Source: Candidatus Iainarchaeum sp.
GTDB taxonomy: Archaea; Iainarchaeota; Iainarchaeia; Iainarchaeales; CSSED10-239
Length of the DNA: 9,129 nucleotides
Assembly (NCBI GenBank): GCA_028693335.1
Contig: JAQUVR010000021.1
Span: 1-9,129, forward strand
Direction: 5' to 3'
Positions within the stretch are counted from its first letter, which is position 1. Each line of letters begins with the position of its first letter. Made by a program: the position numbers and the translations under genes. The notes below the pieces were generated by a model that worked only from the letters and a program-made list of their open reading frames with translations, was not told where the DNA came from and made no database searches. Shown piece after piece: positions 1 to 9,129 of the stretch.

Positions 1-287
1 CCAAGACAAGTAATATCTGGAGCAGATAATTGCGTTAATCCAGCATCTTTTATTAAAACACAAGGAAATCTGTTTTTTATGGATTGATAAAGTTCTAACA
101 ATTCTGTTTTTGATTCAATCTTTAAAACAACTTTCTTCTGACCATAAGTAAGCCAGTCATCAACAGCTCTTGGATCTTTTTTAGAAGTAAGTAAATAACT
201 TTCAATTGCAGCATGCCCTGCTTGTGCAGCAATTTTACCTTTGCCAAGTTTTAGATCATTTCTTACTATTATTACTTGTTTGTACAT
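1..287 (-). CDS. pth2: peptidyl-tRNA hydrolase, archaeal/eukaryotic Pth2 type (N-terminal 95 codons; the C-terminus runs off the left edge)
   Basis: Hand translation of the reverse complement from ATG at 287..285 is open to position 1. It reads MYKQVIIVRNDLKLGKGKIAAQAGHAAIESYLLTSKKDPRAVDDWLTYGQKKVVLKIESKTELLELYQSIKNRFPCVLIKDAGLTQLSAPDITCLG. The opening VRNDLKLGKGKIAAQAGHAA and the later IKDAGLTQ segment match the Pth2/PTRH2 family signature. This is not the bacterial Pth1 type. Confidence 0.8.
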   Translation of the reverse strand, partial: MYKQVIIVRNDLKLGKGKIAAQAGHAAIESYLLTSKKDPRAVDDWLTYGQKKVVLKIESKTELLELYQSIKNRFPCVLIKDAGLTQLSAPDITCL

Positions 288-323
288 ATTTTTCTAGAAA
301 GAATATTTAAAAAATGATGAAAA

Positions 324-674
324 TTATTCATCATCATCAGCAGAAGCCTCTTCTCCACCAGTTACAACACCTAAATAGGTTACTGTAAAAGTTGTTTGAA
401 GTCTTCCCCACATTGATGTTATTTGCTTAGTTTCGTTTAAATAAAGTATTGTATTAAACTCATAACCTCTATGTTCATTTTTTACTAAATAATGTCTATC
501 ATATTCTATTTGTGCACCATTTGATCTTACATTTGTTAATTTAAAAATATAAACTCCATCATGTAATCCAAATTCTTCTCCTTCAGACACAATAGCTTCT
601 GTTTCTTCTTTTGTGTTTTTTGTTGGTCTTTCCATATCAGTTACTTTTTTTATTATATGAAATTTTGCTTTCAT
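324..674 (-). CDS. hypothetical small protein (116 aa) with an acidic C-terminal tail
   Basis: ATG-initiated ORF on the same strand as its neighbours. A Shine-Dalgarno-like AAGGA (plus-strand 681-685) sits 6 nt upstream of the ATG, with GGAG at 689-692. The protein ends in GGEEASADDDE. I recognised no family motif. Confidence 0.55.
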   Translation of the reverse strand: MKAKFHIIKKVTDMERPTKNTKEETEAIVSEGEEFGLHDGVYIFKLTNVRSNGAQIEYDRHYLVKNEHRGYEFNTILYLNETKQITSMWGRLQTTFTVTYLGVVTGGEEASADDDE

Positions 675-767
675 GATTAATCCTTTTTCTCCATATATTT
701 TGAAATTTTCTAAAAATATTTATATCTAATAAACATAAGGATAATAGGTTTATAAATATAATTATTT

Positions 768-1766
768 TTACCAATTGATAATAACTTGATCAGTTCTAAA
801 TTTTGAATTTATTTTCGTATCTTTTAATTTCATTCCATTTTTGTAATTATGAATGTAGTGTTTAAGACCAAGATCTGCAATTATTAATCCATTATCAACA
901 CAAACAACCATTGGTGGAATAAAAAGTTTTATTTTGTTTTGTTTTGCAAAAATTTCTAACATCTCTTTTAATGCTTTACTTGCTGCAACTCCACCGATCA
1001 CCATAACTTCTTTTTTTTTTGTGTAGGAAAGTGCTCTATCAGTTACTTCTAAAAGCATAGCATAAGCGGTATGCATAAACGAATAAACTAGTTCTTCTTT
1101 TGGATAGTTATTTATTATTTTTTTAGAATGTGTTAATAATCCAGAAAAATTCAAATCCATTCCTTTTACAGAATATGGTAGTTCTATATATTTAGATCTA
1201 TCTGCCTTAAAATAAATTTCATCTAAAACAGGTCCACCAGGAAATCCATACCCAAGATCTCTTGCAAAGCTATCAAATAAATTACCTATTCCAATATCTA
1301 GTGTTTCTCCAATTATCTTATACCTGTTTTCATCTTTTGCAATTATTTGTGTGTTTGCTCCAGAGGTATAAATTATCAAAGGGTCTTTTGCTTTTAAAAG
1401 GGTTTTGCCAATTTCTATATGAGATATACAATGATTAACACCAATTATTGGTTTATTATATTTAATAGATAAAGTCCTAGCTAAGGTTGCAGAAACAGAA
1501 AGACATGGTGCAAGACCTGGCCCTTGTGAAAATGAAATAACATCTATATCTTTCATTTTTAATTTTGCTTTTCTTAATGCAGATTCTAAAACAGTTATAG
1601 CATTATCGTAATGAAAAATAGAAACATCAAATGGTTTTAATCCAACACCTTCTTTTGAAATAAATTGCATCTTTTCATTAGAAAGAATATTTCCGAAATT
1701 ATCAATTATTCCAACGCCTATTGTGTGAGCAGTACTTTCTATTCCTAAACAAATTTTTTTTGACAT
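768..1766 (-). CDS. kae1: tRNA N6-adenosine threonylcarbamoyltransferase, Kae1 (KEOPS catalytic subunit), stand-alone form
   Basis: 332 aa. The N-terminus LGIESTAHTIGVGI is Kae1/OSGEP-like rather than the bacterial TsaD GIETSCDET form. Also present are the metal-binding His pair GVNHCISHIEIG, then YTSGANTQI, GGVAASKALKEML and CVDNGLIIA near the C-terminus. The length indicates no Bud32 fusion. Confidence 0.9.
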   Translation of the reverse strand: MSKKICLGIESTAHTIGVGIIDNFGNILSNEKMQFISKEGVGLKPFDVSIFHYDNAITVLESALRKAKLKMKDIDVISFSQGPGLAPCLSVSATLARTLSIKYNKPIIGVNHCISHIEIGKTLLKAKDPLIIYTSGANTQIIAKDENRYKIIGETLDIGIGNLFDSFARDLGYGFPGGPVLDEIYFKADRSKYIELPYSVKGMDLNFSGLLTHSKKIINNYPKEELVYSFMHTAYAMLLEVTDRALSYTKKKEVMVIGGVAASKALKEMLEIFAKQNKIKLFIPPMVVCVDNGLIIADLGLKHYIHNYKNGMKLKDTKINSKFRTDQVIINW

Positions 1767-1774
1767 AATTATTT

Positions 1775-3772
1775 TTAATTAATATTATAATATCCAGAAT
1801 ATAGTTCTTCAATTGTATCTACATTTGTATATTTTGGATATATTACTCTAGATATTGATGCTTGACAATCACAAGTACCAGCATTACAACAATTATAAAG
1901 TGGCCTATATTTTAAATAATCTGGATTTCTTGGATTACATAGTTTGTCATAGACTACTGGAATATTATCTATATCTTTAAATTGACAATAATACCCATCA
2001 AAACAAGGATAACAATTTTTCGTACTTACCCAATAAAGAGTGTTATTTTTTTCTATAGATGTATAATCTTCTCTTGGATTTAATGTAATTCTATTTCTTA
2101 ATATTCCTTGAGTAAATGTTATATATTGATCTAAATTTACTGTTTCAACAATAGATCCATTCATATGAAGTATCTGATTTCTTCTGGAAGCAACATCTCC
2201 AAGATACAAAACAACATGAGTAAATTGTCTATCTCTTCCATTAATATCTCTTGCTCTTATTGGAATATTGTTTCTATTTAACACCAAATTATTTTCTGTT
2301 TGTCTATAAAGATAATTACTGGTTGGTAAATAAACACCTAGTATTGTTCCAGGAACTAATTTTAATTCCCTATTACTTTCTTTTTCCCAAATAACATTAT
2401 TTTCATATATTAGATCCCATGCATTAGCTCTTATATAATTTAGACCAAAGACCTTATTTGCAGCTGTCACTGCAACTTTAGAACATAAAAATGTCCCCCC
2501 AATTGCCATATCATGACAATTTGGATTAGAATCATCAATAACACAATTATATTTTAAAATATCAATATCAGACATTCTTTTTTCTCCAAGAACAATATTT
2601 TTTCTAATTGGTAGTGGACACATTCTTGTTAATAAATTTTCATTTGTATTATATGTTAAAATATTTACTGACCTTGAACCAATTCCAAGAGGATCATCAC
2701 CAATTGTTTGTGCAATAATAGATTCATCATATTCTCCAGCAAAACATTGTCTTCTATATGTTGATTTATAATATGTTGAATAATTTGCAATTATTCTTTC
2801 TTTCATTTCTGTATTATCATATCTTGTTGTTTCAAAAATTTCTTTTAAAACTATATATTTTGCCATTTTTACTGCAATTTGAACATCTGCATTATTACCA
2901 ACAACCCCTTCATAATTTCTAATTCCTAATTTAAATTTTATTGGACCAGAAGTATATTTATATGAATAACAAGTAGCATAAAATAAATCTACAGAGTCTT
3001 GGTGCGTTCTAGAAAAATTTGCAGAATTAGAAAGAATATTATTTATAACAAATGGTCTAGTTGAGTTTGCAGATTCTGATTCTATAACTTTAAGTATGTT
3101 TTTATAAATTGTAGCTCCTAAAATAGCAGACGCATATGGGTTTGTATTATCTCTTATCGCTGTTTTTAATTGATTAAATTCAGCATCAGAATCAATAGTG
3201 TTATTTTCCCCACCAAAACGAGAACCATATCGGTTTCTTTGTATTTCTTCATTTATTGTAAAAAGATTTGCGGATCTTAAAGAATCACTTAAAAATCGTC
3301 CAGGTCTTGTTCTTGTTTCTGTTGACAAAACTACATTGTTATACCAAACAGGGCCTATCTGAGCAACTCCTCTAAATAGTCTATCTCCACTAATTACTCC
3401 AATTCGTCTATTTTGATTACTCCAAACAGTACACCCTGATTCTGCTGACATCATTGCAAAATATTGAATAGTTTGTTCTTCAGTGAAATTAAATGCACTT
3501 GCAATTTGAAAAACAATTTTTAAAAAATCGCCTTGACAACCTTGATAATCTCCTAAAACTTTATTTATTTGCCCAGAAATTAATCGTTGTAGTGCAATTT
3601 TTCTTGATGGTTTTAATTCGAAATCTTCTAAATAATTAGCAATAACAATATCATAACTTGGCTGTGAGGCTGGTCTTGCCGGTGTTGCCGGTGTTGAGGC
3701 AAATACTGATATAGAACTCATTATTAAAAAAATAATTATTAATATTAAGAAAATTTTTTTCATTTTGTTCAC
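1775..3772 (-). CDS. secreted multidomain putative cell-wall hydrolase: signal peptide, TPA/RPA linker, SLT/lysozyme-like region, NlpC/P60-CHAP-like cysteine hydrolase domain, Cys-rich C-terminal tail
   Basis: 665-aa ORF. The track start at 3772 is GTG. The ATG at 3763..3761 (MKKIFLILIIIFLIMSSISVFAS) is the more likely start and gives a classic Sec signal peptide with a probable VFA/S cleavage site. SLT-like motifs are MMSAESG (Glu111, nt 3440-3442), then GVAQIGPVWYNN 24 aa later, and further on LFYATCYSYKYTSGP. The papain-like domain has FLCSKVAVTAANK (Cys430, nt 2483-2485), ANAW, VPGTILGV, FTHVVLYLG (His519, nt 2216-2218) and QILHMNG (His536, nt 2165-2167). The last 80 aa contain 8 Cys. The fold assignment rests on motifs only. 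Confidence 0.8.
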   Translation of the reverse strand: MNKMKKIFLILIIIFLIMSSISVFASTPATPARPASQPSYDIVIANYLEDFELKPSRKIALQRLISGQINKVLGDYQGCQGDFLKIVFQIASAFNFTEEQTIQYFAMMSAESGCTVWSNQNRRIGVISGDRLFRGVAQIGPVWYNNVVLSTETRTRPGRFLSDSLRSANLFTINEEIQRNRYGSRFGGENNTIDSDAEFNQLKTAIRDNTNPYASAILGATIYKNILKVIESESANSTRPFVINNILSNSANFSRTHQDSVDLFYATCYSYKYTSGPIKFKLGIRNYEGVVGNNADVQIAVKMAKYIVLKEIFETTRYDNTEMKERIIANYSTYYKSTYRRQCFAGEYDESIIAQTIGDDPLGIGSRSVNILTYNTNENLLTRMCPLPIRKNIVLGEKRMSDIDILKYNCVIDDSNPNCHDMAIGGTFLCSKVAVTAANKVFGLNYIRANAWDLIYENNVIWEKESNRELKLVPGTILGVYLPTSNYLYRQTENNLVLNRNNIPIRARDINGRDRQFTHVVLYLGDVASRRNQILHMNGSIVETVNLDQYITFTQGILRNRITLNPREDYTSIEKNNTLYWVSTKNCYPCFDGYYCQFKDIDNIPVVYDKLCNPRNPDYLKYRPLYNCCNAGTCDCQASISRVIYPKYTNVDTIEELYSGYYNIN
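3672..3698 (-). repeat. three tandem 9-nt units (ggtcttgcc / ggtgttgcc / ggtgttgag on the plus strand) encoding the TPA-TPA-RPA linker after the signal peptide
   Basis: Read directly from the sequence. The units are in frame within the 665-aa CDS (ASTPATPARPASQPS) and form the most GC-rich patch of that gene. Confidence 0.7.
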
Positions 3773-3824
3773 GCTCTCGCTCTAAATAATATATATTATT
3801 ATTTACAAAAATTATATAAAACCA
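3773..3824 (-). promoter_or_regulatory. candidate archaeal promoter and short leader for the 665-aa hydrolase gene
   Basis: 52-nt gap between the TAG stop of the 255-aa gene and the hydrolase start. The minus strand reads TGGTTTTATATAATTTTTGTAAATAATAATATATATTATTTAGAGCGAGAGCGTG. It has TATA-like TTTTATATAA and ATATATTATTTA, followed by a conspicuous GC-rich direct repeat GAGCG-A-GAGCG (plus-strand 3773-3783) just before the start codons. No experimental support. Confidence 0.3.
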
Positions 3825-4592
3825 CTATCTTTTAGGCAAAATTATTTCAACCAACTCATTTTCATATAAATATTCTTTTATTGGAAAAATATTTGCACCG
3901 TCTTCTTCTAAACTTATTATTGATTCAACACCATCTATCTTTCCAATAAATAAAACAACATGAGTATATTTTTTTGTATCTAATTTAAATTGGTTTATAA
4001 TCTGATTATTATTTTTTGTAATAATTCCTAAGATCGCACCTTCAGGGATATCACTATAATTAATTTTTTTATTTATATCTCTATTCCAAACAACAATATT
4101 ATTTTCTTTCTGATTTAAAAGCCAAGCGTGATCTAAGTCATAATCAACAGCATAAATTTTCTTTGCAGCAATTACACAAAATTGAGAACAATAATTTGTT
4201 TCTCTAACATATATCTGTTCACAAATTTGACCAAGTTTACAATTACCTATTGCTTTAATTATTTCAATGTCTACTACTCTTTTTGGATATATTATATTTT
4301 GATTATTACTTTTTATATCAAATTTATTAAATATATCAAAAATATCATAATTAAATATTATTGGAATTTTTGCTAAAATATTTGTTTGAAAATTATATAA
4401 ATTTAAAATATCAAATTTATTCTGATTTTCAAAAGTGCTATTTTGATCATTGATTTCTTCTGTAAATCCAAAACTTAGTAAAAAGATTAGTAATATTAAA
4501 ATTAAAATTTTTCTCAAATATTTCAACCATTTTTGTAATTTTAAAGATATTATTAATAAAATGTTTATAAATTGATTTTTTAAAAAAACCAC
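3825..4592 (-). CDS. membrane-anchored or secreted NlpC/P60-CHAP-like cysteine hydrolase paralog of the C-terminal domain of the downstream 665-aa protein
   Basis: 255-aa ORF with no in-frame ATG anywhere. The track start at 4592 is GTG. A TTG at 4526..4524 would give M-KYLRKILILILLIFLLSFGF, a clean signal or anchor sequence. Homology to the 665-aa protein is visible by eye: YCSQFCVIAAKKIY/DHAW/ENNIVVW/IPEGAILGI/YTHVVLFIG aligns with LCSKVAVTAANKVF/ANAW/ENNVIW/VPGTILGV/FTHVVLYLG. The candidate nucleophile is Cys135 (nt 4188-4190) and the candidate His is His211 (nt 3960-3962). Confidence 0.7.
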   Translation of the reverse strand: MVFLKNQFINILLIISLKLQKWLKYLRKILILILLIFLLSFGFTEEINDQNSTFENQNKFDILNLYNFQTNILAKIPIIFNYDIFDIFNKFDIKSNNQNIIYPKRVVDIEIIKAIGNCKLGQICEQIYVRETNYCSQFCVIAAKKIYAVDYDLDHAWLLNQKENNIVVWNRDINKKINYSDIPEGAILGIITKNNNQIINQFKLDTKKYTHVVLFIGKIDGVESIISLEEDGANIFPIKEYLYENELVEIILPKR

Positions 4593-4627
4593 TAATATTT
4601 TAATATTATTCTAAACATTAATATATT
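4593..4627. promoter_or_regulatory. divergent promoter region between the 255-aa hydrolase paralog and cysS
   Basis: AT-only spacer taatattttaatattattctaaacattaatatatt. A TATA-like TTTTAATA (4598-4605) is centred about 27 nt upstream of the cysS ATG. If the paralog starts at the TTG at 4526, the divergent region is 101 nt, which gives room for two promoters. Confidence 0.3.
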
Positions 4628-6073
4628 ATGAGCATAAAACTATATAATACACAATCAAAAAAAAAAGAAATATTTAAATCAGAAATACCTAATCTGTTAA
4701 AGATATATGTGTGTGGTGTAACTATTTATGATGATGTGCATATTGGTCATGCATTTTCATATATTAATTATGATATTTTGATTAATTATTTTAAACATTT
4801 CTTAGGATATGATATTCTTTATGTAAGAAATATAACAGATGTTGGCCATTTAACAGATGATGGAGATTATGGTGATGACAAAATTGAGAAAAGAGCACAA
4901 CAAAGAAAAATGCATCCAATGGAGTTAGTTTATATTTATAGCCATAGAATGTGGAAAAATTTTGATGCAATTAAACTATCTAGGCCAAACCTTGAACCAA
5001 CAGCATCAAGTCACATACCTGAAATGCAAGAGTGGGTTAAAAAAATGCTTGAAAATGGTTTTGCTTATGAAGTAAATGGAAATATTTATTATGATATTTC
5101 TAAATTTAGTGATTACGGAAAATTTGCAAATAAAAATATAGAAGATCTAGAAAAAAACACAAGATTTGAAAATGATCCTAATAAAAAAAATCTTCAAGAT
5201 TTTGCATTATGGATAAAGGCAGATCCAAAACACATTCTTAAATGGCCATCTCCTTGGGGAGAAGGATATCCTGGTTGGCACTTAGAGTGTTCTGTTATGG
5301 GAACTAAATATCTTGGTGAAAAATTTGATATTCATGGTGGTGGAATAGAACATGTCTTTCCACATCATCAAAATGAAATTGCACAAAATTATGGATATTA
5401 TAAACATCCAGTAGTAAATTATTGGGTACACACATCAATGCTTATGGTTGAAGGCAAAAAAATGGGTAAATCTCTTGGCAATTTTATAACTATTGAAGAT
5501 TTTTTAAAAAAACATTCTGCTGAAAGTCTAAGATATCTCTTTAGTACAGGACATTATAGAAAACCACAAAATTATACTGAACAAGCAATATTGGATTCAA
5601 AAACTGCTATTGAAAGATTAAATAAATTTATTAAAAGATTACAAGCAGTAAACAACAGTAAAGATAGTTCTTTTGGTAAAGAAATTATTGAAACAACAAT
5701 TGATAATTTTAAAAATTCAATGAACGATGATCTAAATACTCCTTCTGCATGGGCAAGTATCTGGATAATGATCAAAGAAATTAATAAACTTATTGATCAA
5801 GATAATTTAACTACAGAAGAAGCAAATAAAGTTCTTGATTTTTTACAAAAAGTAAATTTAGTGTTTAAGGTTTTTAATTTTGAACAAGATAATAAAGAAG
5901 AAAATGATAAAACAAAAATAAAAAAGGACGAAATTGAAGAATTAATTAAAAAAAGAGATAATGCAAGAAAAAATAAAAATTGGGAAGACGCAGATCTAAT
6001 AAGATTAAATTTAGAAAAAAAAGGAGTAATATTAAGTGATTCCTTAACTGGAACTACTTGGCATTATGAATAG
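4628..6073 (+). CDS. cysS: cysteine--tRNA ligase (CysRS)
   Basis: 481 aa. It has the class I HIGH motif (DVHIGHAFSY) and the KMSKS variant KMGKS. CysRS zinc-site contexts are present: YVCGVTIYD, GWHLECS and HGGGIEHVFPHHQNE. The C-terminus NKNWEDADLIRLNLEKKGVILSDSLTGTTW is typical of CysRS. There is no SD upstream. A TATA-like TTTTAATA lies about 27 nt upstream of the ATG, which suggests a leaderless or near-leaderless mRNA. Confidence 0.95.
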   Translation: MSIKLYNTQSKKKEIFKSEIPNLLKIYVCGVTIYDDVHIGHAFSYINYDILINYFKHFLGYDILYVRNITDVGHLTDDGDYGDDKIEKRAQQRKMHPMELVYIYSHRMWKNFDAIKLSRPNLEPTASSHIPEMQEWVKKMLENGFAYEVNGNIYYDISKFSDYGKFANKNIEDLEKNTRFENDPNKKNLQDFALWIKADPKHILKWPSPWGEGYPGWHLECSVMGTKYLGEKFDIHGGGIEHVFPHHQNEIAQNYGYYKHPVVNYWVHTSMLMVEGKKMGKSLGNFITIEDFLKKHSAESLRYLFSTGHYRKPQNYTEQAILDSKTAIERLNKFIKRLQAVNNSKDSSFGKEIIETTIDNFKNSMNDDLNTPSAWASIWIMIKEINKLIDQDNLTTEEANKVLDFLQKVNLVFKVFNFEQDNKEENDKTKIKKDEIEELIKKRDNARKNKNWEDADLIRLNLEKKGVILSDSLTGTTWHYE

Positions 6074-6383
6074 GATTTTCTATTAAAATTTCTTCGGTAT
6101 TATTTTCTTTAATTATTATAAAATCCACATCTTTATTTTTTAATTCTTTAAAATAATAATAAGCTAATGATTCCATTCCTTTATAATTTTTTATTAAAGA
6201 AAATAAATCCTCATCTCTAATTTTAAAATTAAAATCTTCTAATTTTTTTCTTTCAAGATTAAGATCTATACCCTTGATTCTTCCATTTATAAGTTCGCCT
6301 TTAAAACCAAGCCCAACTATAAATTGTAAAGGATGTTTTTTATGACTTAATGTCAAATTTGCATAACAGATTGCTTTATTCAT
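6054..6383 (-). CDS. hypothetical small protein (about 109 aa from the ATG at 6383; the track ORF extends to 6425)
   Basis: The ORF is on the same strand as, and immediately downstream of, the 143-aa ORF. The ATG at 6383..6381 follows the upstream stop (6387..6385) with one spacer nt (TAATATG), so I prefer it over the ATG at 6425, which would overlap the upstream gene by 41 nt. The 3' end overlaps the cysS 3' end convergently by 20 nt. No family motif recognised. Confidence 0.5.
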   Translation of the reverse strand: MNKAICYANLTLSHKKHPLQFIVGLGFKGELINGRIKGIDLNLERKKLEDFNFKIRDEDLFSLIKNYKGMESLAYYYFKELKNKDVDFIIIKENNTEEILIENPIHNAK

Positions 6384-6384
6384 A

Positions 6385-6816
6385 TTACTTTTTTTCTTTT
6401 CTTGTATAGATTCCAAATGCAACATCTTTTACACTAAACCCAGCAAGTAATAATTCTTCTGGTTTTGGACCGTACATTTCTATTATTTCTGGAATATATT
6501 CACCAACAAATTTAATTTGTTTTTTTCTAACTAACATTTTTGCAACATCTAATTCTTTAGATAAATCTGCTATTGCTTCTTTATCAATTTTTGCTTTTTG
6601 AGAATTAGTCATTTTTTTTAATTTTGTATTAATTGTTTCTACTTTTCTTAAAATCTCAACATATCTTCTTTCCATCTCAACTAATGTTTTGTTTACTAAT
6701 GGTTTTTTAGATCTTGGGATTTCTTGTATTTTTTTATTATCCATTAATTCTTTTCCTTTCTGATATTGTGTTTTTGAAATTGTTCGTTTTGCTGGTCTTT
6801 TCATAATTGTTGGCAT
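6385..6816 (-). CDS. hypothetical basic, Lys-rich protein (143 aa), probably with a coiled-coil middle
   Basis: ATG start with a good SD: AGGAG (plus-strand 6827-6831) lies 10 nt upstream. The N-terminus is basic (KRPAKRTISKTQYQKGK). The middle is a heptad-like charged segment (VEMERRYVEILRKVETINTKLKK...). The C-terminus reads PEIIEMYGPKPEELLLAGFSVKDV. No family motif recognised. Confidence 0.55.
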   Translation of the reverse strand: MPTIMKRPAKRTISKTQYQKGKELMDNKKIQEIPRSKKPLVNKTLVEMERRYVEILRKVETINTKLKKMTNSQKAKIDKEAIADLSKELDVAKMLVRKKQIKFVGEYIPEIIEMYGPKPEELLLAGFSVKDVAFGIYTRKEKK

Positions 6817-6826
6817 ATTTTTCTAT

Positions 6827-6831
6827 CTCCT
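6827..6831 (-). promoter_or_regulatory. Shine-Dalgarno-like AGGAG for the 143-aa ORF
   Basis: Plus-strand ctcct at 6827-6831 is AGGAG on the minus strand, 10 nt upstream of the ATG at 6816. Confidence 0.5.
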
Positions 6832-6936
6832 AGTGTATCCATTAATTTATTAATTAAAAATAATAATATTAAGCATCAGATTAATTTAAAAACATATTTT
6901 CTACAATAATTACAAAAGTAGATCTATGCTCATTTT

Positions 6937-6942
6937 AAAAAA
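6937..6942 (-). terminator. candidate oligo-T archaeal terminator after the methyltransferase gene
   Basis: An A6 run on the plus strand gives T6 on the minus strand (AATTTTTTAAAA), about 10 nt downstream of the TAA stop at 6953-6955. It lies at the start of the only sizeable intergenic gap in the minus-strand block. Weak on its own in DNA this AT-rich. Confidence 0.25.
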
Positions 6943-6952
6943 TTAAATAAAA

Positions 6953-7570
6953 TTATAATTTAGAACTACAAACAGCAATATAATTAAAATGATCATAAGC
7001 AAAAGGATCTTCCAATCTATCATTTAAATTAAATATGTCTGTATATATTTGCCCATAAATATTATCAATCTTAAAATATTTTGATAAAATCTTTTTAAAC
7101 TCTTCTAAACTAAATTCAACAACATGGTAAGGAGAACCATGTGGTTTTCTTGGAGTTGATATTATTAATCTTCCATCAGTGGTTAATACTCTCCTTATTT
7201 CTTTTAAAAAAAGATCTGGAGATTTTATATGTTCTATTCCTTCAAAAGAAATCACTACATCAAAATAATTATCTTTAAATAATTCCATATCTTGTATATC
7301 GCATACAAAAAAACAATTTTTATCATTACTGAATAATTCATTGGCATGATCAATTGCTGGGGGGAATATATCCACCCCATATACTTTAGTAGACTTCTCT
7401 GTTAATAATCTTGTACCATATCCACTACCACAAGGAGCATCTAAAACCACATCATCTTCTAAAATAAAATTTAATGCAAATTTATATCTAGCTAGATGAC
7501 TTGGCTCAGCAGCTTCTACTGTCTTTGGTGCCTGTCTTTCTTTATCTGATTCAATCATTGTTTTCTCCAT
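6953..7570 (-). CDS. class I (Rossmann-fold) SAM-dependent methyltransferase, substrate unknown
   Basis: 205 aa. Motifs are HLARYKFA followed by motif I VVLDAPCGSGYG, the acidic motif II VYGVDI, then FDVVISFEGIEHI and LKEIRRVLTTDGRLIIST. The ATG at 7570..7568 directly abuts the asnS stop (TAAATG). Confidence 0.85.
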   Translation of the reverse strand: MEKTMIESDKERQAPKTVEAAEPSHLARYKFALNFILEDDVVLDAPCGSGYGTRLLTEKSTKVYGVDIFPPAIDHANELFSNDKNCFFVCDIQDMELFKDNYFDVVISFEGIEHIKSPDLFLKEIRRVLTTDGRLIISTPRKPHGSPYHVVEFSLEEFKKILSKYFKIDNIYGQIYTDIFNLNDRLEDPFAYDHFNYIAVCSSKL

Positions 7571-8884
7571 TTATGGTTTATATCTTACCATTGTTCTTGG
7601 AAATGGTATGGTGTCTTTTATGTTATCTACTCCAGTAATATAAGCAATCAATCTTTCAACACCCATTCCAAACCCAGCGTGTGGAACAGAACCATATCTT
7701 CTAGTGTCTAGATAAAATTCATAATGTTTTGGATCTTCTCCATCGTCCTCTAATCTTTGCTTTATCTTTTCTAAGTCTGGTTCTCTTTCACTAGCTCCAA
7801 TAATTTCACCATATCCTTCTGGCCCAATACAGTCAAAACCAAGAACAACTTTTGAATCATCTGGATCTTCTTTCATATAGAACGCTTTTACAATTTTTGG
7901 ATATCTGGTTACAATTACAAAAGTATCATGTAGTTTACTTAATTTATCTTCTTCAATTGTTCTAAGATCTTTTCCCCATTCAACATCCATATCTGCTTTT
8001 TCTTTTAAAAGTTTTAAACTTTCAGTGTAAGTCATTCTTACAAATGGTTTTGAAATTGCAGTTTCTAATAAATTAATGTCTCTTTTTAAAATTTCTAGAT
8101 CTTCTTTGTGTTTTTCTAAAACTGTTTTAATTACATGTTTTATTAATCCTTCGCCATAATCTTGCAATTGCTCAAAATCAATCCAAGCACCTTCCATTTC
8201 AGCATGCCAATATTCTGTTAAATGTCTAGATGTTTTTGATTTCTCTGCTCTAAAGGATGGTGCTATTGTGTAAATCTTGCCCAGAGAAAATATTGCTGGT
8301 TCTGCATATAATTGCCAAGTTTGTGCTAAAAAAACACCTTCTTGTTCAAAATAATCAACCTTAAAAAGAGAAGAACCGCCTTCACATTGAACTGATTGAA
8401 GTATTGGTGATTGATATTCATAAAATCCTTCTTTACGAAAATACTCATGAATTGCTCCAATAGCTGTTGATCTAATTTTTAAAATTGCTGTCATTTTTCT
8501 GCTTCTAAGCCATAGATGTCTAACATCTAATAAGAACTCTTCTGAGAAGTCTTTTGATATTGGATAGTTCTCTGATTTTCCAATTAATTTTAAAGAATCT
8601 ATATCAATCTCATACCCTTGTGGAGATCTTTCTTCTTTTCGTAATTTTCCATAAACAATTATTGATGATTCTATTCCAAGAGTTTTTGCAAGTAAGAATT
8701 CTTCTTCCTTTAGTTTTTCTTTTGCAGCAATCAATTGAATAATTCCGGTTTCATCTCTTATTGTTATAAAGATGTTATCTTTTTGATCTCTTATTCTATA
8801 GACCCAACCTCTTAAGGAAACATCTCCTTCTTTTTTATCTAATATTTCTTTTACTGATAAATATTTTTTCATAATTTTTTTCAC
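7571..8884 (-). CDS. asnS: asparagine--tRNA ligase (class IIb, archaeal-style AsnRS)
   Basis: 437 aa. The N-terminal OB anticodon-binding region reads LRGWVYRIRDQKDNIFITIRDETGIIQ. Motif 2 is FRAEKSKTSRHLTEYWHAEMEGAW, the AsnRS-type form rather than the archaeal AspRS form. Motif 3 is GFGMGVERLIAYITG. The track start at 8884 is GTG. The in-frame ATG at 8872..8870 (MKKYLSVKEIL) is an equally plausible start. Confidence 0.9.
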   Translation of the reverse strand: MKKIMKKYLSVKEILDKKEGDVSLRGWVYRIRDQKDNIFITIRDETGIIQLIAAKEKLKEEEFLLAKTLGIESSIIVYGKLRKEERSPQGYEIDIDSLKLIGKSENYPISKDFSEEFLLDVRHLWLRSRKMTAILKIRSTAIGAIHEYFRKEGFYEYQSPILQSVQCEGGSSLFKVDYFEQEGVFLAQTWQLYAEPAIFSLGKIYTIAPSFRAEKSKTSRHLTEYWHAEMEGAWIDFEQLQDYGEGLIKHVIKTVLEKHKEDLEILKRDINLLETAISKPFVRMTYTESLKLLKEKADMDVEWGKDLRTIEEDKLSKLHDTFVIVTRYPKIVKAFYMKEDPDDSKVVLGFDCIGPEGYGEIIGASEREPDLEKIKQRLEDDGEDPKHYEFYLDTRRYGSVPHAGFGMGVERLIAYITGVDNIKDTIPFPRTMVRYKP

Positions 8885-8945
8885 ATCCTTTATTGCTTAT
8901 TAAATAATGGTTAACAAATATATTAAAAACAATTCATTTCTCTAA

Positions 8946-8969
8946 TAGATCTAATTATTTTAAGATCTA
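8946..8969. promoter_or_regulatory. pair of AGATCT-core palindromes (TAGATCTA, then AGATCTA) 16 bp apart, upstream of asnS; possible operator or 7-bp hairpin
   Basis: tagatctaattattttaagatcta, read directly. The two arms can also pair as a 7-bp stem with a 10-nt loop. The same 8-mer TAGATCTA occurs in the other promoter-bearing gap at 6919-6926. Confidence 0.3.
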
Positions 8970-9129
8970 GAGAAAATATATGCTAATAAAAAAAGATTTT
9001 TTCGGCCTTACTGGCCATTAAAGTTATTGATAACTATACAAAATTTTGATTTAAAACTAGATTTTTCTAAAACTATTTTGTATATCATAAATAAAATAAG
9101 AAAAGAAAAGTATTTAAAAGAGAAGGAAA

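Follow-up and report, generated by a model that had tools for sequence, protein, structure and literature searches.

Two adjacent archaeal genes encode divergent NlpC/P60-like proteins predicted to be secreted

The locus and its two genes

The window analyzed here is a stretch of 9,129 nucleotides (nt) from Candidatus Iainarchaeum sp. (assembly GCA_028693335.1, contig JAQUVR010000021.1, positions 1-9,129). It carries two adjacent minus-strand genes, hereafter called LONG and SHORT, whose products share one domain. An earlier note, made from the sequence, had described the pair as tandem paralogs encoding exported, papain-like wall hydrolases within an archaeal gene neighborhood. We find that the shared domain defines a new and divergent family, although both the superfamily to which it belongs and the ecological idea that it evokes are already known. 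It is probable, if well short of certain, that LONG and SHORT are an exported pair of murein hydrolases from a DPANN-type archaeon, acting on bacterial walls through divergent NlpC/P60-like domains.

The coordinates that the earlier note gave for both open reading frames (ORFs) are correct, but translation probably begins further downstream than the longest frames would suggest (Table 1). Because of the orthologues and the reading of the DNA itself, we prefer ATG 3763 for LONG and TTG 4517 for SHORT. The former would yield a protein of 662 amino acids (aa) whose N-terminus, MKKIFLIL..., matches that of P0001, which is likewise 662 aa long. The latter would yield 230 aa beginning with MRKILILI..., in alignment with the MKKIL... 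start of the orthologues P0007 and P0008.

Signal-peptide-like hydrophobic N-termini are present on LONG, on SHORT, and on 12 of the 17 large relatives described below. For example, the N-terminus of P0001, which is nearly identical to that of LONG, reaches 3.25 in a 15-aa Kyte-Doolittle window. In SHORT, a signal or anchor segment is followed by a variable stalk and then by the NlpC/P60-like domain. Based on these N-termini, we infer that both proteins are secreted.

Table 1. Coordinates of LONG, SHORT, their predicted parts, and the adjoining Kae1 gene in the window
Feature	Position (nt)	Strand	Residues	Remarks
SHORT gene	3825..4592	minus		longest ORF, 255 aa from GTG 4592
SHORT signal/anchor and low-complexity stalk	4236..4517	minus	26-119	
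SHORT NlpC/P60-like core	3828..4235	minus	120-255	
SHORT predicted catalytic residues	4190-4188; 3962-3960	minus	Cys135; His211	
LONG gene	1775..3772	minus		longest ORF, 665 aa from GTG 3772
LONG signal peptide	3695..3763	minus		MKKIFLILIIIFLIMSSISVFA then S; predicted from sequence
LONG N-domain	2783..3682	minus	~31-330	recurring domain
LONG N-domain Glu-Ser codons	3442-3437	minus	Glu111-Ser112	
LONG conserved cysteines	2545-2516	minus	Cys410/Cys419	just upstream of core
LONG NlpC/P60-like core	2078..2515	minus	420-565	
LONG predicted catalytic residues	2485-2483; 2218-2216; 2167-2165	minus	Cys430; His519; His536	
LONG C-terminal tail	1778..2077	minus	566-665	8 Cys between residues 587 and 636
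Kae1 gene	768..1766	minus		begins 8 nt past LONG stop codon

A divergent domain family with remote homology to NlpC/P60

The domain common to the two proteins spans about 140 aa and is detected by BLASTP between residues 398-527 of LONG and 104-219 of SHORT (E=1e-10, 27% identity). Every motif that the earlier note had listed as shared is present in both proteins, namely C-S-x-[FV]...AA-x-K, AW, ENN-x-V-W, P-[EG]-x-ILG, and [YF]-THVVL-[FY]-[IL]-G. An alignment of this domain was turned into a hidden Markov model (HMM) and run exhaustively against 1.84 billion representative proteins. It recovered 126 relatives at E<=1e-3, a family of at least 126 clusters at 50% identity. Most relatives are 150-220 aa in length, while the 17 large ones, of 517-3182 aa, have the domain close to the C-terminus.

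Residue conservation was counted over 134 aligned domains in LONG numbering. The column of C430 holds Cys in 130 of the 134 and that of H519 holds His in 132, whereas the column of H536 is occupied by His (84), Glu (15), Asp (11), or Gln (8), giving one of these four residues in 118 domains. Within the LONG and SHORT orthogroups, the predicted catalytic Cys and His are invariant. The earlier note had numbered these residues correctly (C430, H519, and H536 in LONG; C135 and H211 in SHORT), and the order that it proposed, Cys, His, and then a polar residue or a second His, holds for LONG, whose triad aligns with that of MepS, and for most of the family. SHORT instead has Ser227 at the third position, with an invariant Glu229 two residues further on, and Ser is found in this column only in the SHORT orthogroup (7/134).

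The description of the genes as tandem paralogs is apt in that both belong to one family, but we rejected the idea that they are recent tandem duplicates. The nearest non-orthologous relative of LONG is P0032, and that of SHORT is P0009. Because each has closer relatives elsewhere, LONG and SHORT are distant members of the family.

The profile checks proposed in the earlier note, Pfam NLPC_P60, CHAP, and SLT, were negative for both window proteins in a Pfam-A scan at E<=1, and profile searches of the PDB with the alignments A2, A3, and A5 likewise gave no match. Among 60 family members scanned at E<=5, the recurring sub-threshold Pfam matches were to NLPC_P60 (three, the best at E=0.0021), Peptidase_C92 (three), Peptidase_C97 (one), and BRK (two), of which the two peptidase families and NLPC_P60 all belong to the papain-like Pfam clan.

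More sensitive evidence comes from hhalign comparisons with NlpC/P60 references built from PDB chains (MepS, 7cfl, and LytE 8i2f). The whole family of 134 sequences scored 90.3% (E=1.5e-6), compared to 1.2% (E=0.046) for a reversed reference and at most 0.4% (E>=0.15) for 12 column shuffles. When every sequence of the two window groups was removed, the family still scored 82% (E=1.1e-5), and the window groups matched the remaining family at 99.8% (E=1.3e-29). The alignment to NlpC/P60 covers 88 columns and places C430 on the Cys of DCSGF, H519 on the His of HVGIY, and H536 on the His of FVHA, such that the three LONG residues coincide with the Cys/His/His triad of MepS in non-permuted order. 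These profile comparisons establish remote homology of the family to NlpC/P60 (Pfam PF00877; MEROPS C40). The homology is well controlled, but it is transitive with respect to LONG and SHORT because the window groups alone fall short of NlpC/P60.

The NlpC/P60 half of the clan assignment in the earlier note is thus borne out, whereas CHAP lacks profile support and is matched only weakly in structure searches. Membership in CHAP (PF05257) was rejected: the whole family scored 0.05% (E=0.81) against the CHAP reference (4csh/8h1i/6ist), and no Pfam CHAP match was found.

An AlphaFold model based on the 60-sequence alignment has a confident core at LONG residues 425-564 (pLDDT 77-94), in which C430 lies at the N-terminus of a helix, H519 opens a strand, and H536 lies on the next strand. 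This predicted topology fits a papain-like alpha+beta fold. For full-length LONG, an alignment of 10 sequences did not yield a usable model (pLDDT 37). The structure search that had been suggested returned the expected folds, but weakly: the top PDB match by Foldseek, with E=0.026 and a probability of 0.82, is CHAP(K) 4csh, and two NlpC/P60 domains, 8er5 (TM 0.50-0.51) and 2evr, were also retrieved. No match was obtained against BFVD.

LONG carries two further segments. Its N-domain has the invariant residues Glu111-Ser112 ... Gly135-x-x-Gln138-Ile139 ... Trp143 and recurs in P0009 and P0016 (E about 1e-19), as well as in a 1189-aa protein of contig L020, where it precedes an NLPC_P60 domain of canonical type that scores 31.4 bits in Pfam against a cut-off of 23. 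In the P0009 segment it has a sub-threshold match to Pfam Lys (E=3.3e-4), in the L020 protein one to Phage_lysozyme2 (E=0.009), and there is a weak match to lysozyme C in the PDB (E=0.6). By hhalign it scores 7.6% against hen egg-white lysozyme (HEWL) and 7.3% against four E. coli SLT domains, values that are non-significant but above all shuffles. All of these weak matches align Glu111 with the Glu that is catalytic in lysozymes or lytic transglycosylases. There is no SLT match in Pfam, and the tests against HEWL, MltE, and the four-paralogue E. coli SLT alignment were non-significant. Judged from its sequence, the N-domain is possibly lysozyme- or lytic-transglycosylase-like. The Cys-rich tail of LONG is conserved among orthologues only, with no relatives beyond them, and may be a disulfide-rich binding module.

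Archaeal context and evolution in place

The flanking genes Pth2, Kae1, and AsnRS are as the earlier note had named them. Against the archaeal equivalog TIGR03722, Kae1 scores 405.7 bits and so exceeds the cut-off of 375, AsnRS and CysRS pass their own equivalogs, and the ORF cut by the left edge of the window is Pth2, being 96% identical to an orthologue with Pfam PTH2 annotation. LONG and SHORT are probably co-transcribed with Kae1. Two related contigs, CAZPGO010000043.1 ("uncultured archaeon") and a contig from JGI, share the gene order of the window: AsnRS, two small genes, CysRS on the opposite strand, SHORT, LONG, Kae1, a 118-aa gene, and Pth2. Genes for thermosome and Hjc lie near this block in the relatives. 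More distant family members are located in metagenome-assembled genomes named Nanoarchaeota and Candidatus Woesearchaeota, and others adjoin genes for diphthamide synthase, intein-containing aRF1, archaeal histone, or Hef. Wherever the context of a family member bears diagnostic markers, these are archaeal. Given the Kae1 equivalog, Pth2, the syntenic thermosome and Hjc genes, and the markers beside other family members, the contig is, by its gene content, archaeal, as the earlier note had supposed, and of DPANN type. Within this type, our comparison suggested Nanoarchaeota (Woesearchaeales or Pacearchaeales) as the probable placement.

That note had also argued from base composition that the pair is not a fresh insertion, and had seen no immunity-like or mobile-element gene beside it. 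Indeed, the GC content of LONG (0.28) and SHORT (0.20) is similar to or below that of the remainder of the window (0.27), and no mobile-element or immunity-like gene was recognized next to them in Pfam, NCBIfam, and PHROGs scans. In addition to the conserved synteny, substitution rates between the window and the syntenic relative L001 lead to the same conclusion (Table 2).

Table 2. Divergence of eight genes between the window and the syntenic relative L001 (NG86 estimates, approximate at dS near 0.8 in such AT-rich DNA)
Gene	Identity	dN	dS	omega
Pth2 (partial)	96%	0.028	0.71	0.04
Kae1	90%	0.064	0.81	0.08
CysRS	86%	0.084	1.03	0.08
AsnRS	86%	0.095	0.79	0.12
123-aa ORF	81%	0.108	1.09	0.10
116-aa ORF	80%	0.131	0.59	0.22
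LONG	62%	0.283	0.79	0.36
SHORT	50%	0.370	0.88	0.42

Values of dS are similar across the eight genes (0.59-1.09), while dN of LONG and SHORT is 3-10 times that of the four housekeeping genes. Within the core domains of both proteins, omega is about 0.28-0.31, which still reflects purifying selection, whereas the SHORT stalk evolves almost neutrally (omega about 0.73). Because dS is alike, dN is raised, and the predicted catalytic residues are kept, LONG and SHORT are old residents that evolve rapidly in place. Allele replacement or horizontal gene transfer as the source of their low identity was rejected, since their dS equals that of their neighbors. In P0004 (L018), from a nearly identical strain, the SHORT stalk has a 31-aa in-frame deletion between NKFDI repeats (window ~4290-4400, minus strand), and the length of this linker thus varies between close strains.

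Several other features of the block were noted. The divergent intergenic region between SHORT and CysRS (window 4593-4627, or reaching to about 4517 if SHORT starts at TTG) presumably holds the promoters of both genes and lies where the window is richest in AT (GC 0.17, bin 4251-4750); our promoter and terminator scan is of the bacterial type and is uninformative for AT-rich archaeal DNA. A gene for a class I SAM-dependent methyltransferase (6953-7570, minus strand; Methyltransf_11, E=1.7e-21) begins right after the AsnRS stop codon without a gap. It is missing at the equivalent position of the otherwise syntenic contigs L001 and L002, so that close relatives differ here by an insertion or a deletion. 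A 143-aa Lys/Glu-rich ORF (6385-6816, minus strand) shares only a 19-aa BLASTP match with the 155-aa ORF at its syntenic position (L001 7655-8122), while the adjoining 123-aa ORF is 81% identical to its counterpart and overlaps the 3' end of CysRS by 20 nt in convergent orientation. The 143-aa ORF is thus a second fast-evolving or replaced gene of the block. No tRNA genes or Rfam families were found in the window.

The surroundings of other family members also vary. The small members P0020 and P0012 lie directly downstream of a gene for an Lrp/AsnC-type regulator in three contigs (L013 1229-2336, L014 533-1640, and L016 4348-5480), a two-gene arrangement unlike the context in the window. On L009, an archaeal contig with P0010, the genes for a PEP-utilizing enzyme (PPDK_N) and aRF1 (1900-6081 and 8508-9677) carry inteins that contain LAGLIDADG homing-endonuclease domains. 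P0013 (192 aa; L007 1-11726, JGI Ga0378408_0003627) adjoins a same-strand block of small phage-family ORFs that match YopX (phrog_98, 6e-27), a DNA methyltransferase (phrog_11619, 5e-31), an amidoligase (phrog_2443, 2e-20), and phrog_1250 (4e-21). This region looks like a virus or mobile element with a copy of the domain.

Predicted function, alternatives, and significance

If LONG is an enzyme of this superfamily, then the thiolate of Cys430 at the N-terminus of its helix would be activated by His519, which in turn would be oriented by His536, and would attack an amide bond of the peptidoglycan stem peptide, making LONG an endopeptidase or an amidase. The N-domain of LONG may in addition cleave the glycan strand with Glu111 as its only catalytic Glu, like lytic transglycosylases and goose-type lysozymes. 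SHORT would be a stalked and probably membrane-proximal version that uses the pair Cys135-His211, with Ser227 and Glu229 replacing the third His.

Clues to the substrate come from the giant relatives. YkuD L,D-transpeptidase domains lie beside the family domain in P0016, P0035, and P0072, and YkuD acts on murein stem peptides. P0016 (1867 aa; L011 3280-8883, and L012) also carries the LONG-type N-domain. In P0084, the divergent domain is followed, after about 100 aa, by a canonical NLPC_P60 domain (E=1.5e-23). Ig-like and CarboxypepD_reg repeats, which are typical of surface proteins, occur in the giants as well. Finding YkuD on a surface protein of an archaeon invites the speculation that attachment to the murein of a host could be covalent. 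Archaea are expected to have no murein of their own (PMC8204110). Assuming that this is true of the present organism, the target would be the wall of neighboring or host bacteria, and the activity might serve attachment, breaching, or scavenging. The genes are core-genome residents, probably co-transcribed with Kae1, and they evolve fast, as host-interaction proteins do.

Several points weigh against such a function. Neither LONG nor SHORT, nor any profile made from the two, has a match in Pfam, NCBIfam, PHROGs, or PDB sequences. In hhalign comparisons with NlpC/P60, the window groups alone reach a non-significant 0.2-1.9%, and Foldseek found no PDB match with E<1e-3. SHORT does not have the third His, and the lysozyme-like character of the LONG N-domain is tentative. 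A Pfam scan recognized no peptidoglycan-binding domain (LysM, SH3b, or PG_binding) in the window proteins. Furthermore, the NlpC/P60 superfamily also acts on non-murein substrates, through acyltransferases and other amidases, and cultured DPANN archaea have archaeal hosts.

The lack of a murein-binding domain and the archaeal hosts of cultured DPANN would also suit enzymes of the same papain-like fold that remodel or cut a different target: an archaeal surface polymer or protein, either in the envelope of the organism itself or, as S-layer, pseudomurein, or glycoprotein, on an archaeal host. A location in the core genome with conserved synteny and probable Kae1 co-transcription is more like housekeeping than like a weapon, and small members of the family are spread widely across DPANN genomes, including those that follow the Lrp/AsnC regulator. 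However, the co-occurrence of the domain with YkuD and canonical NLPC_P60 argues for murein, and so high a dN is more in keeping with host interaction than with housekeeping. Similarity to pseudomurein endoisopeptidases (Pei; MEROPS C71) was also absent from the scans against all Pfam-A (window proteins at E<=1, 60 family members at E<=5). We regard a non-murein target as the main alternative, serious but rather unlikely. Even less likely is that one or both proteins are catalytically dead modules for binding or adhesion. SHORT is the likelier pseudoenzyme because Ser replaces its third catalytic residue, as is true for all seven SHORT orthologues, and omega values of 0.36-0.42 for the full proteins are relaxed. 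Yet Cys and His never vary within either orthogroup and hardly vary across the 134 sequences, the cores remain under purifying selection, and Glu229 could stand in for the missing His.

Two further explanations concern the origin of the genes rather than their activity. The virus-like setting of P0013, with its YopX, DNA methyltransferase, and amidoligase matches, would suit the recent acquisition of a lysin cassette, whether from a virus, a mobile element, or bacteria. At the present locus this origin is largely refuted and very improbable, since synteny is kept between genomes whose neighboring genes are 80-96% identical, dS is equal to that of these neighbors, GC content resembles the surroundings, and mobile-element genes are not adjacent. 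Moreover, two IMG/VR pattern scans and a tblastn search of annotated phage records returned no relatives. Finally, a bacterial or chimeric contig, on which the pair would be ordinary autolysins, has a negligible chance of being correct. We found no point in its favor. Against it, the window encodes Pth2 and a Kae1 that passes the archaeal equivalog, the syntenic contigs carry thermosome and Hjc, and related NCBI records are titled 'uncultured archaeon' and 'Candidatus Woesearchaeota archaeon'.

Considered as murein hydrolases, LONG and SHORT resemble the NlpC/P60 enzymes of bacteria (MepS/Spr of E. coli, LytE and CwlO of B. subtilis) in profile homology, in the order Cys/His/His of LONG, in the modeled position of its Cys at a helix N-terminus and of both His on consecutive strands, and in their predicted export. 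In contrast to those enzymes, they are encoded by an archaeon, no LysM or SH3b wall-binding module is present, and the family falls below the PF00877 threshold or is unmatched. LONG additionally has C410 and C419 upstream of the core, an insertion of about 30 aa (residues ~485-515), and the Cys-rich tail. With CHAP lysins such as LysK CHAP(K) (4csh), the family shares the papain-like clan and the top Foldseek match, but not profile similarity. Bifunctional hydrolases that combine a glycosidase with a cysteine peptidase, for example TraG of pIP501 (SLT+CHAP), occur in Gram-positive conjugation systems and phage tails. LONG would resemble these in having a candidate lysozyme-like N-domain followed by a papain-like domain, although it lacks the context of a mobile element or secretion machine.

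Secreted murein hydrolases of DPANN archaea, including Woesearchaeota and Pacearchaeota, and archaeal peptidoglycan hydrolases that are bactericidal, have already been published (PMC8204110, PMC9723730, PMC12352652). Vigneron et al. (2022) proposed "vampiristic" Woesearchaeota equipped with GH23 enzymes and pore-forming toxins (PMC9723730). The proteins of that study and fam00969, reported in 2021 by Castelle et al., come from the same kind of organism, are secreted, and have been suggested to act on bacterial murein by binding or degrading it; a further likeness is the existence of giant proteins (900-3200 aa) among the relatives of the window domain. However, those proteins were recognized through SLT/GH23 annotation, whereas the window proteins and 12 giants were scanned without an SLT match.

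Strock et al. (2025) reported that archaeal peptidoglycan hydrolases kill bacteria, and that such enzymes, under a Pfam-based definition, are found in about 5% of archaeal genomes and are prominent in Nanoarchaeota (PMC12352652). LONG and SHORT would share with these hydrolases (Woldo/Danwoldo, M23 + PG_binding_1) an archaeal source, secretion, and a bacterial murein target, the latter two being predictions here. The published set, however, consists of M23 metallopeptidases with Pfam catalytic and wall-binding domains and a patchy, plasmid-biased distribution, whereas LONG and SHORT are Pfam-negative, cysteine peptidase-like, and embedded in core synteny. Because neither contains a Pfam domain, both fall outside the modular definition and would escape surveys of this type (PMC12352652). 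Our literature search found no paper naming both DPANN and NlpC.

A bolder proposal, which we offer tentatively and hold to be possible rather than probable, is that this largely DPANN-specific NlpC/P60-like family, together with the lysozyme-like N-domain and YkuD, forms a core-genome toolkit with which Woesearchaeal and Pacearchaeal cells attach to and breach bacterial murein. If this is true, then attachment may perhaps even be covalent, through YkuD, the lineage would depend on bacterial rather than archaeal hosts, and the 3-10-fold non-synonymous excess would record an arms race with host walls. As murein hydrolases, members of the family would add to the enzymes by which DPANN archaea are held to act against bacteria or interact with bacterial hosts, and could be a source of new lytic enzymes. 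They are candidates, with predicted catalytic residues, for addressing whether Woesearchaeota and Pacearchaeota attack or attach to bacteria, and the pairing of a conserved core-genome location with rapid protein evolution recommends the locus for studies of host adaptation.

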